Positions 19,417 to 23,955 of a stretch of DNA of 64,000 nt are shown piece after piece (positions within the stretch are counted from its first letter, which is position 1; each line of letters begins with the position of its first letter). The position numbers and the translations under genes are program-made. The notes under the pieces are model-generated. The model ran no database searches. It had not been told where the DNA came from and saw nothing but the letters and a program-made list of their open reading frames with translations. The stretch is from Octopus vulgaris (taxonomy: Eukaryota). Where the stretch lies: the NCBI GenBank assembly GCA_951406725.2, contig OX597825.1, forward strand, positions 26,164,001 through 26,228,000. The letters are read 5' to 3'.

Positions 19417-19796
19417 AATGGAGGCTCAATGGCCCAGTGATTAAGGCAGCGGACATGCGGTCGTAGGATCGCAGTTTCGATTTCCAGCTCGGGCGTCGTG
19501 CGTGTTTCTTGAAGGGAAGACACATAAAGCAACACGAGGCTCCAGCAGGGGGTGGTGGCGAGCTCTGCTGTACTCTTTCACCGCAACTTTCTTTCACACT
19601 TTCTGTTTCTGTTGTACCTGCATTTCAAAGGGCCATCCTTGTCACACTCTTTGTCACGCTGAATCTCCCCGAGAACTACGTTAAGGGTACAAGTATCTGT
19701 GCAGTGCTCACCCATTTGCATGTTAATTTCCTGAGCAGGCTATTTCGTTGATTGGATCAACTGGAAGCCTCGTCCTCACAACCGACGGAGTGCCAC
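19417..19796 (+). mobile_element. tRNA-derived SINE type B, near full length
   Basis: Head TGGCCCAGTGATTAAGGCAGCGGAC...GTTTCGATTTCC; body homologous to 6043-6349. Confidence 0.9.
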
Positions 19797-20039
19797 GATA
19801 TTCCTTAGATTTCGGATAAAAAGAAAAGACGATGATGGTGCTGTTGATGATGATGAGAATTTTGGTTACACGTTAGATGTGATTGTTAGATCCGTCTTTT
19901 ATAGGCTCAAAAATGTTTAGGACAGCGATTTCCAATGTGATTTCTATATACTGTTCGTTCTGACGCTATTCATGGTCCACCAACATTCTTACATGATGTA
20001 GAATGTAGGGGCATACTCTATTATCTTTATATAGGATCA

Positions 20040-20370
20040 CTTTCTAATCACTTTCTTTCGATGTCTTGCAAACAACTTGCGCATGCAAGTGCTACCAGTT
20101 AAAAGCTCCGTATACTGGAAGCTAGCAAGTGTATGGGGTCATCATGAGAGAATGCGCGCCGTTTCGGGGCCTACCTCTCGACGGCATCAATACACACCGG
20201 CCCCACTCACTGATATCAGGCCCCGTTTGCTAGATCAGCTGGTTATGAAGAACTCAATATACTTCTAGCCATCGTTCATCGTCTCTTTTTAACCACATCC
20301 AGTGGCTAGCCTTCTCCACTGTAGATTGGATGTCAATGAATTTTGTTTCGCGTGGGTCTTCACGGCCCAA
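20040..20370 (-). mobile_element. 3' end of a HERO-like (restriction-like endonuclease) non-LTR retrotransposon
   Basis: Minus-strand frame DIQSTVEKASHWMWLKRDDERWLEVY* (about 20335->20254) resembles the AE(R/K)AS.WLW.KR C-terminus of HERO-clade ORFs. A GC-rich structured 3' UTR follows. Confidence 0.7.
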
Positions 20371-20965: not shown

Positions 20966-21840
20966 GTGGTATTGCATCCGTCGTTGATTTTGCTGTCTTC
21001 CAATTTCCTGTTTCAGGAAATATCTGCTCAAATATTTCATGGATTTTTTTTTTTTTTTTTATCAAATACCATTTATCTAGGATCGTACGTCAAATTTTGA
21101 CCTGTTCATATATCCCGAATGTTTTATCAGATACAATTTATCTAAGACCATATATCAAATACTGAACTACTGTTCGAATAGTGAACAGTGCAAAGTATTT
21201 TCGAAATCCTTTACGTAGATATTTCCCCGGGTTTTGGAGATGCTGCGTTTATATAGATCATATATATGATGGTAACTATTGGTAGTGTCCCGATATCCTT
21301 AACAATTATTATAAACAAAGGGAGGCAGAGTGACAAAGATAAGGAAGTATATCCTAAATTATTAAAGTAATATGTAAATTTACTTATACATATTGTATTC
21401 AAATCTTGCCAGAACCACTTTTGCGTTATTGATATATTATGCCCAACTATATTAAAATGGCCGATGTAACTGAACGCAATCTCCAACAAAATCTATTGAT
21501 TTCGTGCCGATGATCTAAATGAAAGCTTTGTTTGTCTCCTTTCTTTTACGCTCTTATTTTATGACCCGGAGAGCAGGGTAGGTATTCTCATCGATTTGGG
21601 ATCAATGATTTACTAGGAATGATTCTGAATTTGTTCCCCCGAAATCTATCTCTCCCATTCGATTAATATATCCGTCAACCTATTTCTCTCGTGTTTGACT
21701 GCACAGCATATATCTTGCCCGGTGATTCTACTTGAGAATTACGTTAAGTTACAGGTATCTGTAGATAACTCATTCATTAACACGTCAATTTACGGCCAAG
21801 AATTCAATTGGTTACACAAGAAAATGCACAGACTTGAAAC

Positions 21841-21916
21841 CTGCATAGCACAGAAGAGCGAGCGAGCTTGGAGTATATGTATACTCCAAGCTCGCTCGCT
21901 CTTCTGTGCTATGCAG
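21841..21916. repeat. Perfect palindrome, 37-bp arms with 2-nt spacer
   Basis: CTGCATAGCACAGAAGAGCGAGCGAGCTTGGAGTATA-TG-TATACTCCAAGCTCGCTCGCTCTTCTGTGCTATGCAG. Confidence 0.97.
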
Positions 21917-22807
21917 ATATTCAACTAGGATGGTTAAAGACTTTTCTAATCATATACAGGAGCTAATATATACCTCATTAGGAGGTAGAAACCATTACTA
22001 AACACAGAAAAATGATACTCCAACTCCCAAGCAAAAAAATGGGATCCTCTCCTATATATATATCCAAATAGAAGTGGATGACACCCACACCGTCAATCGT
22101 TCGATCGTTGAAAAGAAGAACAACCTTCAGAGATAAACTACAATTTCAGTAACCCCTCTCCCCACAATGAACGTATGAACTTAAATACTTGAGAAGTGCA
22201 GTTACGTATACATATGTATGAGTGCGTATGTGTGCGTACGTATGTAAGTATGTACTTATACGGGTGTGATACATACACATGCACTTGTTTGTATACATGT
22301 GTGTTGATAGATGTGTGTAAATATGTATATACACACACGTGTATTTTCTGTGGCTCATATGTGCCCATAGATTTGCGCATGATTCATTAATATCATCATC
22401 GTCGTTGTTTAGCGTGCACATGAAAAACGGAGATTCGACGACGATGATGATGGTGGTGGGTGCATGATCGTAGGTGTGAGGGGCATGAGGGCTGGGGGGA
22501 TATTTATGTGCGGCTGTATGTGTGTATATACGTGTGTATATGTGTATATACATGTTTACAAACTAAGGTTTTGTCCTTTCAACATAATTATGTTGAAAGA
22601 ACAGAATCGTATTTTGTGTAAAATTGTATACTTTTATTATCATAGCTCGAATATACTCTTAAATCCATTAAAACAAATATTTTTTTACTATTATTTCTCT
22701 ATATCTCTATATATCGACTGCGTGTGTTTCCCCAGTAAAATATTTTGTACGTTGTATATATATATATATATATATATAAATTATATATTATATATAAAGA
22801 TAAGATT

Positions 22808-23329: not shown

Positions 23330-23625
23330 TCGTGAGCTTGTGGGTTCGATTCCCGCAACGGGCAGCATGTTGTGTCCGTGAGCATGACCCTTTATGTCAT
23401 GTTGCTCCAGTTCACTCAGCTGTTGAAATGAGCTGCAACATCACTGGTGCCAAGCTGTATCGGCCTTTGCTTTCCCCTTGGATAACAACAGTGGCCTGAA
23501 GAGGTTAGTCTGGTATGCGTTGGCGACTGCTGGTCTTCCAGAAACAACTTTACCCGGACTTGTGCTTCGGATGGTTACTTTCTAGATGCAATGCCATGAT
23601 CATTCATGAACGAATGGGGTCTCCT
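23330..23625 (+). mobile_element. tRNA-derived SINE type C (5' end clipped)
   Basis: B box GGTTCGATTCCC and central TTGCTCCAGTTCACTCAGCTG; tail homologous to 5843-6042. Confidence 0.8.
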
Positions 23626-23793
23626 CCACATACATACATACATACATACATACATACATACATACATACATACATACATACATACATACATACATACATA
23701 CATACATGCATACACACACATACACACACACAAACACACACATACACATATATACATACATACATGCTGACACATACACACATATATATATCG

Positions 23794-23955
23794 TTTACTT
23801 TTACCTTTTTACTTGTTTCAGCCATGCTGGATCACCGCCTTTAGTCGAACAAATCAACACCAGAACTTATTGCTTTTTAAGCCTAGTACTTATTCTATTG
23901 GCCTCTTTTGCCGAACCGCTATGTTACATACAACGTGCTTCTTTCAGTTTCCGAC
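23794..23955 (-). mobile_element. SINE type A, truncated and internally deleted
   Basis: 3' part matches the type-A consensus in the window. Confidence 0.8.

Follow-up and report, generated by a model that had tools for sequence, protein, structure and literature searches.

A hammerhead-like ribozyme with an interrupted catalytic block near the 3′ end of a HERO-like LINE in Octopus vulgaris, and a possible circular RNA template

Introduction

In the cited portions of Eckert et al. 2023 (PMC10085705), the hammerhead is divided into blocks S, G and C, and the arrangement called type SGC is shown to cleave. Type SGC has a short linker between stems I and II and a helix that ties these two stems together, and block C, that is CUGANGA with its flanking strands, was assumed to be uninterruptible. 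According to these portions, the SGC RNAs came from metatranscriptomes, none of them from the genome of a known organism, and they are slow, with rates of 0.007–0.19 per min (Table 1 of that paper).

Retrotransposition through a circular template has been argued so far for Penelope elements and retrozymes. For the former it was proposed that the transcript is cut twice, ligated and copied as a circle (Cervera and de la Pena 2014, PMC4209133), and for the latter the cut-ligate-circle cycle was shown in part (Cervera and de la Pena 2020, PMC7229834). Penelope-like elements, as the cited parts of PMC4209133 describe them, are autonomous, form head-to-tail copies longer than one unit and have had a cut-ligate-circle model proposed for them, all of which applies to the LINE that we describe here; the trait of head-to-tail copies with a hammerhead in each repeat is present in it. 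However, their endonuclease is of the GIY-YIG kind and their hammerheads belong to type I and often depend on dimers, whereas our LINE has the restriction-like endonuclease of the R2 group, a ribozyme of another fold and, in addition, a genomic footprint of the predicted cut. Non-LTR retrozymes (cited parts of PMC7229834) cleave themselves to monomers that are circularised, most likely by RtcB, and the circles are proposed to be templates for reverse transcriptase (RT). The same scheme is proposed below for the LINE, but retrozymes are 170–400 nt long and non-coding with a type I hammerhead, while the LINE is 3.7 kb long and encodes its own protein.

R2, likewise a LINE with a restriction-like endonuclease (RLE), is freed from a longer transcript by its own ribozyme, which according to the portions cited (PMC13708176, PMC13580325) is HDV-like and lies at the 5′ end of a linear template with a fixed 28S target; in contrast, the ribozyme of our LINE is a near-3′ hammerhead that the copies read through. 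HERO LINEs share with it the single ORF with a restriction-like endonuclease, the mostly absent fixed target and relatives in fish and molluscs, and their descriptions mention, in the parts cited, neither a ribozyme nor wrap-around copies, both of which the present LINE has (PMC4640811, PMC9004415, PMC10294476). The literature search, which left Repbase Reports outside, returned no hammerhead or other ribozyme for HERO and no circular LINE template, and an earlier notice of tandem HERO copies is possible.

Results

A hammerhead-like motif in the window

The DNA analysed is a stretch of 64,000 nt of Octopus vulgaris (contig OX597825.1, positions 26,164,001 to 26,228,000), which we call the window. 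A 5′-truncated LINE 3′ end of 273 bp, inserted on the minus strand at 20063–20335, contains a hammerhead-like motif (Table 1), and this copy matches 39 other genomic places with 95–96% identity (query 116–390). A sequence-only reading of the window had pointed to a scrambled hammerhead here. All the strings that it named are present at their minus-strand positions, with GUC and the predicted cut between 20180 and 20179, GAAA at 20165–20162 and (A)UGAUGA at 20145–20139, and its four helices were confirmed in the window copy. Beyond these four there are hairpin Y (20220–20205), broken in the window copy, and a pseudoknot helix, PK, in which 20198–20192 pairs with 20157–20151. The motif does sit in the 3′ UTR, as the upstream frame ends in VEKASHWMWLKRDDERWLEVY and a stop, which is the C-terminus of the family ORF.

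Compared with a natural full copy, the window copy carries changes at C3 (20145), at two places each in hairpin Y and PK and at one in helix X. The A in place of C3, already seen in the sequence-only reading, is private to this copy, the 29 other top copies all having CUGAUGA. From its sequence, the window copy is likely to be a dead ribozyme. Single-strand folding of it was no better than that of shuffles (z = −0.11; 88 of 200 shuffles were equally good), and the case for a motif beyond chance therefore comes from the family evidence below. With the Rfam hammerhead, no match was obtained in the window at E ≤ 10 and none in 10 loci at the gathering score. Elsewhere in the window, a long near-perfect inverted repeat at 21840–21917 gave only a weak match to a microRNA model, and 23350–23900 and 19640–19800 hold fragments that we take to resemble short interspersed repeats.

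Table 1. Parts of the LINE insertion and its hammerhead-like motif, in window coordinates
Feature	Position	Strand	Evidence
5′-truncated 3′ end of HERO-like RLE LINE, whole insertion, without poly(A) tail	20063..20335	-	genomic matches, copy boundaries
Single ORF: final codons and stop	20254..20335	-	frame compared with family ORF
Closing helix X, 5′ strand (outer 8 bp and inner GGGG); G20226A in the window copy	20221..20233	-	
Hairpin Y, the second of the two helices inserted at the four-way junction; changes at 20217 and 20205 disrupt it in the window copy	20205..20220	-	
Stem II 5′ strand GGGGCC, source of G10.1	20199..20204	-	first pair G-C in 23/24 non-redundant families
PK 5′ strand, linking stem I with stem II; G-U pairs persist despite two C-to-T changes	20192..20198	-	
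Stem III strand, U16.1, C17 (20180), predicted cut 20180/20179	20179..20185	-	5′ end of 13 insertions at the base equivalent to 20179
Stem I strand GAGAGG and short linker	20172..20179	-	
Stem II 3′ strand GGCCCC, G12-A13-A14, stem III strand ACGGC	20158..20171	-	GAAAC invariant in 24/24 aligned families
PK 3′ strand and stem I strand UCUCUC	20146..20157	-	
Core CUGAUGA, with A at C3 (20145) in the window copy	20139..20145	-	C in 29/29 other copies compared
Helix X 3′ strand, immediately after A9	20122..20138	-	
Constant 3′ terminus of inserted copies, followed by ATC, with which the unit also starts; reverse transcription likely begins here	20060..20066	-	

The host element

The unit, taken from a natural copy (L175), is 3738 nt long with one frame of 1175 codons. 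Its length is divisible by three, yet a circle would hold no endless frame because of the stops in between. In Pfam searches the ORF matched RVT_1, and its matches to zf-C2H2 were weak and below the cut-off. CCHC and PD..ELTVP motifs were found by eye, the latter presumably belonging to a restriction-like endonuclease. No Pfam match to GIY-YIG was obtained in the element, which has a long RT ORF instead. The copy number is high, with 2349 first-look candidates in the 2.8-Gb genome and 489 and 788 genomic places hit by exact probes. In a protein search of the element's own genome the 14 best matches contained no stop, suggesting that the family is young.

Copies have no poly(A) tail; their 3′ terminus is constant, and a short stretch matching ATCTAAG comes next. 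Their insertion sites are diverse with AT-rich flanks and no fixed target gene, which agrees with the HERO trait of mostly lacking a fixed target. Among the 120 homologues listed, the named ones come from fish and bivalves and no named HERO reference is included, and the RT domain matched R2 and L1 structures only weakly. We regard the element as HERO-like, an assignment made by our own reading of its sequence. A quick tree on 123 columns was poorly resolved, and for this reason no order of events is drawn.

Several observations were made in passing. At G000:C29:18.63–18.65 Mb (L031, L032), fragments of the element are amplified in a segmental tandem array together with a 278-bp satellite. Four fish gene models (P0031, P0114, P0118 and P0119) appear to run into the 3′ UTR and translate the ribozyme region. 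In many families (L077, L084, L126, L132, L134) a GCAG..CTGTAT hairpin was seen by eye near the apparent 3′ end, downstream of the ribozyme; it is a candidate priming signal.

The fold is kept across related elements

Relatives were collected from metagenome loci, the best 80 of 180 confirmed, 69 of them with 200 nt or more of sequence beyond the ORF. The GAAA..CUGANGA core was found in 54 of these 69 related 3′ UTRs, and 45 of the 69, from other organisms, parse into a six-helix fold with different stem sequences. The elements come in the order X 5′ strand, hairpin Y, II 5′, PK 5′, III, cut, I, linker, II 3′, GAAA, III, PK 3′, I, CUGANGA and X 3′. Most of the 24 unparsed loci have this layout with a single core or stem base damaged, or lie beyond the stretch searched, and several are without the motif. 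In 41 of 47 parses the four-way junction is free of gaps, no spare base separating A9, helix X, hairpin Y and G10.1. A canonical direct stem II was ruled out, as the strand after A9 and the strand before G12 form 0 bp in 42 of 47 parses.

The descriptor itself imposes stems of at least 3 bp, as well as the U-A pair and a non-G at position 17, and it is therefore the controls, shuffles and chimeras, that carry the case. Real scores were 26–35 in 24 non-redundant families (<75% identity to one another). The lowest of them, 26, was reached by 0 of 1440 core-fixed shuffles and by 8 of 552 cross-family chimeras. Across the 24 families, the only invariant columns are GAAAC and CUGA-GA, and as many as six pair types occur at a stem position: four at most positions of stem I, and 4–5 at positions 3–5 of stem III. 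The CUGANGA core is the same in all 24 with N7 free, and GAAA, the A15.1-U16.1 pair, a non-G at 17 and stem III also occur in 24/24, the U-A pair and the non-G being imposed by the descriptor. At position 17, 9 families have C, 8 have U and 7 have A. The first pair of stem II, made with the upstream strand, is G-C in 23 of 24; the distance from the cut to G12 is 12–18 nt, and the PK helix is found in the parses. Because MAFFT aligned the stems wrongly, its alignment was not used for counting pairs. When an intact copy was folded free of pseudoknots, X and III were recovered, and II, PK and I had zero ensemble probability.

A second family in the same genome (L165, L166, L169 and L171; ~63% DNA identity) shows by eye the same layout with different stems, ~400 nt after the stop; its copies are degenerate, and the two tried did not pass the descriptor. 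Viral contigs gave no match. Conservation in homologous 3′ UTRs was the point on which the sequence-only reading depended, and in the 24 families the GAAA and UGANGA blocks are kept and the helices covary, as seen from pair types, shuffles and chimeras, with CUGANGA as the consensus in 24/24 families and 29/29 copies of the own genome. Clade-wide conservation and covariation thus support its proposal that the 3′ UTR of this RLE-type LINE holds a hammerhead of unusual topology, whose stem II is split. The reading had allowed for either a cis or a dimeric form; the cis form closes, and since every helix closes within one copy, the dimer is superfluous.

Comparison with published hammerheads

The same reading held that the order GUC-GAAA-CUGAUGA belongs to none of types I, II and III. 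The order has already been published as type SGC (PMC10085705). Going by the cited parts of that paper, the LINE ribozyme shares with type SGC (HRIMA-1) the order of cut site, GAAA and CUGANGA, the short I-II linker, the extra helix joining stems I and II and the pseudoknotted core. It differs in that its stem II strand is located 5′ of the cut, X and Y stand between A9 and G10.1, and it resides in animal LINEs, whereas the SGC RNAs are metatranscriptomic. An uninterrupted block C is absent: the four-way junction lies inside this block in 41 of 47 parses, and a stem II strand directly after A9, as in all six published permutations, was found solely in a distant relative, L140. Because block C is interrupted, we consider that the LINE ribozyme works like SGC and do not file it as SGC. 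Behind the distantly related ORF of L140 (945–1130) comes a type-SGC hammerhead without interruption, with a stem III of 8 bp and a stem II of 6 bp, so both wirings occur in the same position behind related ORFs. In L141 (1319–1500), the sequence behind the related ORF diverges after CUGAUGA. The novelty lies in the four-way junction that splits the CUGANGA block, in the location within a genomic LINE and in the copies that exceed one unit.

Insertions that begin at the predicted cut

Run-off of RT from a cleaved RNA would be expected to leave insertions whose first base is the one that follows C17. The genome was searched with a pattern that required two non-matching bases before the predicted cut, the 19-mer after the cut being present in 788 copies. 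There were 12 matches, and 9 of them were true 5′ ends exactly at the cut; with the same design at other offsets, true ends were 4/6 at +1, 2/8 at +2, 0/1 at +4 and 0/2 at −6. A second pattern, with T at −2, gave 4 true ends in 13 matches, bringing the exact-site starts to 13. Against a Poisson background of 0.0022 per nt, taken from 58 loci and our own capture estimate, 9 were observed where 0.98 were expected (P = 1e-6), and 13 against 1.8 (P = 5e-8); AT microhomology makes the local rates uneven, with three 5′ ends at −7 to −12. We also asked whether the exact-site starts are truncations at −1 with later CpG decay. This was rejected, because in 60 further copies, from the first 100 of the 788 places, C17 was T in 2 and none started at −1 to −8. 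Four sequencing runs were presumed to be RNA; their contigs included host flank as well and yielded no RNA ends.

The pile-up suggests that the ribozyme is likely to cleave itself 3′ of position 17. A T precedes the first element base in 11 of the 13 exact-site junctions. In addition, one copy (L259) switches at the cut to sequence of the ORF, and another (L347) has a duplication that ends exactly at GUC. In L253, L254 and L257, GCT replaces GTC right before the cut site. Small deletions cluster at hairpin Y and the G run (L303, L317, L330, L337, L338, L345, L346 and L349), which might come from slippage of RT at the hairpin.

Copies longer than one unit

The 5′ UTR matched 30 loci, 26 of which reach the start of the unit. 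All 26 are preceded there by the unit's own end (25 of them by at least 26 nt); 19 run through the cut and none stops at it. The wrap extents are scattered up to 1972 nt, the longest copy measuring 1.53 units, and the 5′ ends spread smoothly across the unit start. Among the loci mapped in the own genome, no copy of two full units was seen. Of 75 copies that span the junction, 70 have it exact and the other five differ by substitutions or an upstream deletion, and the host 5′ flanks of the wrap copies are unshared except in one duplicated pair. In the target duplications of L008 and L167, the bases ATC at the 3′ junction are absent from the 5′ copy, indicating that the template extends past the apparent end. 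Contigs that run from the 3′ UTR into the 5′ UTR were found in other organisms as well (L070, L088, L093, L100 and L118), to which assembly collapse can contribute.

Discussion

From these genomic patterns, we think it probable that the ribozyme cuts transcripts longer than one unit, that the ends are rejoined and that RT copies round the circular template. In copies that exceed one unit the ribozyme is present twice. Each would cut after GUC, 117 nt before the 3′ end of the element, to release a monomer of 3738 nt, as the pile-up of 5′ ends suggests. About 30 bp in helices X, II, PK and III would then clamp head to tail; four helices span the cut, with 29, 32 and 33 bp in L074, L075 and L065, and the split wiring may serve to hold the cut ends together. 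The nick would be sealed by the ribozyme itself or by a host ligase of the RtcB type, and the RT-endonuclease would prime at a fixed internal site near ATCTAA and copy round the circle. Random fall-off of RT could give short, near-full and 1.0–1.5-unit copies, all of which occur, and templates still nicked could account for the small fraction, a few percent, whose 5′ end falls exactly at the cut. With slightly more reserve, we favour the wider view that a clade of R2-group LINEs retrotransposes via circular RNA, using a seventh hammerhead topology whose junction in the core zips the ends together for ligation.

The main rival, which we consider unlikely, is that the ribozyme cuts and the monomer stays a nicked, base-paired ring, on which RT starts 117 nt from the 5′ end, runs off there and jumps precisely to the 3′ end. 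Insertions do begin at the cut, the jumps from and to the cut ends in L259 and L347 show that RT can jump there, and the T before the element is what untemplated addition upon run-off might give. However, every insertion longer than 117 nt would need such a jump, whereas ~98% of copies pass the cut site (13 starts were found among 788) with the junction exact in 70 of 75, and the 19 wrap copies of 26 that run through the cut would need a second exact jump.

Even less probable is that the ribozyme is slow or blocked and the templates are uncut read-through transcripts of 1.x-unit donors, cutting merely trimming or limiting them. The low rates published for SGC hammerheads (0.007–0.19 per min; PMC10085705, Table 1, in the part cited) would fit, as would the lack of a 2-unit copy among the loci mapped, but upstream repeats could then only shrink over the generations, unlinked copies have no host 5′ flank in common, 0/26 wrap copies end at the upstream cut, and the core is strictly conserved across families. 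Least credible is a non-catalytic, hammerhead-like RT-binding structure, a thought raised also in the sequence-only reading, combined with tandems that arise when the element targets its own start: the motif does adjoin the priming site and its catalysis is predicted, yet the invariant columns are the catalytic ones, the 5′ ends peak at the predicted scissile bond, and most insertions lie at unrelated AT-rich host sites while 0/26 copies have a free start.

The chemistry and the life cycle proposed here are known; the topology and the class of host element are new. The junction inside block C breaks a stated rule of hammerhead architecture, and ribozymes that are not circularly permuted are now placed in animal genomes. 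As the system is young, intact and built on a single ORF, the circular-template model can be tested with one point mutant. The finding is also relevant to the mining of RLE retrotransposons for gene insertion, because the design of the template would differ from that of R2. Finally, the annotation of HERO-like elements would change, in that the active copy would be longer than one unit.
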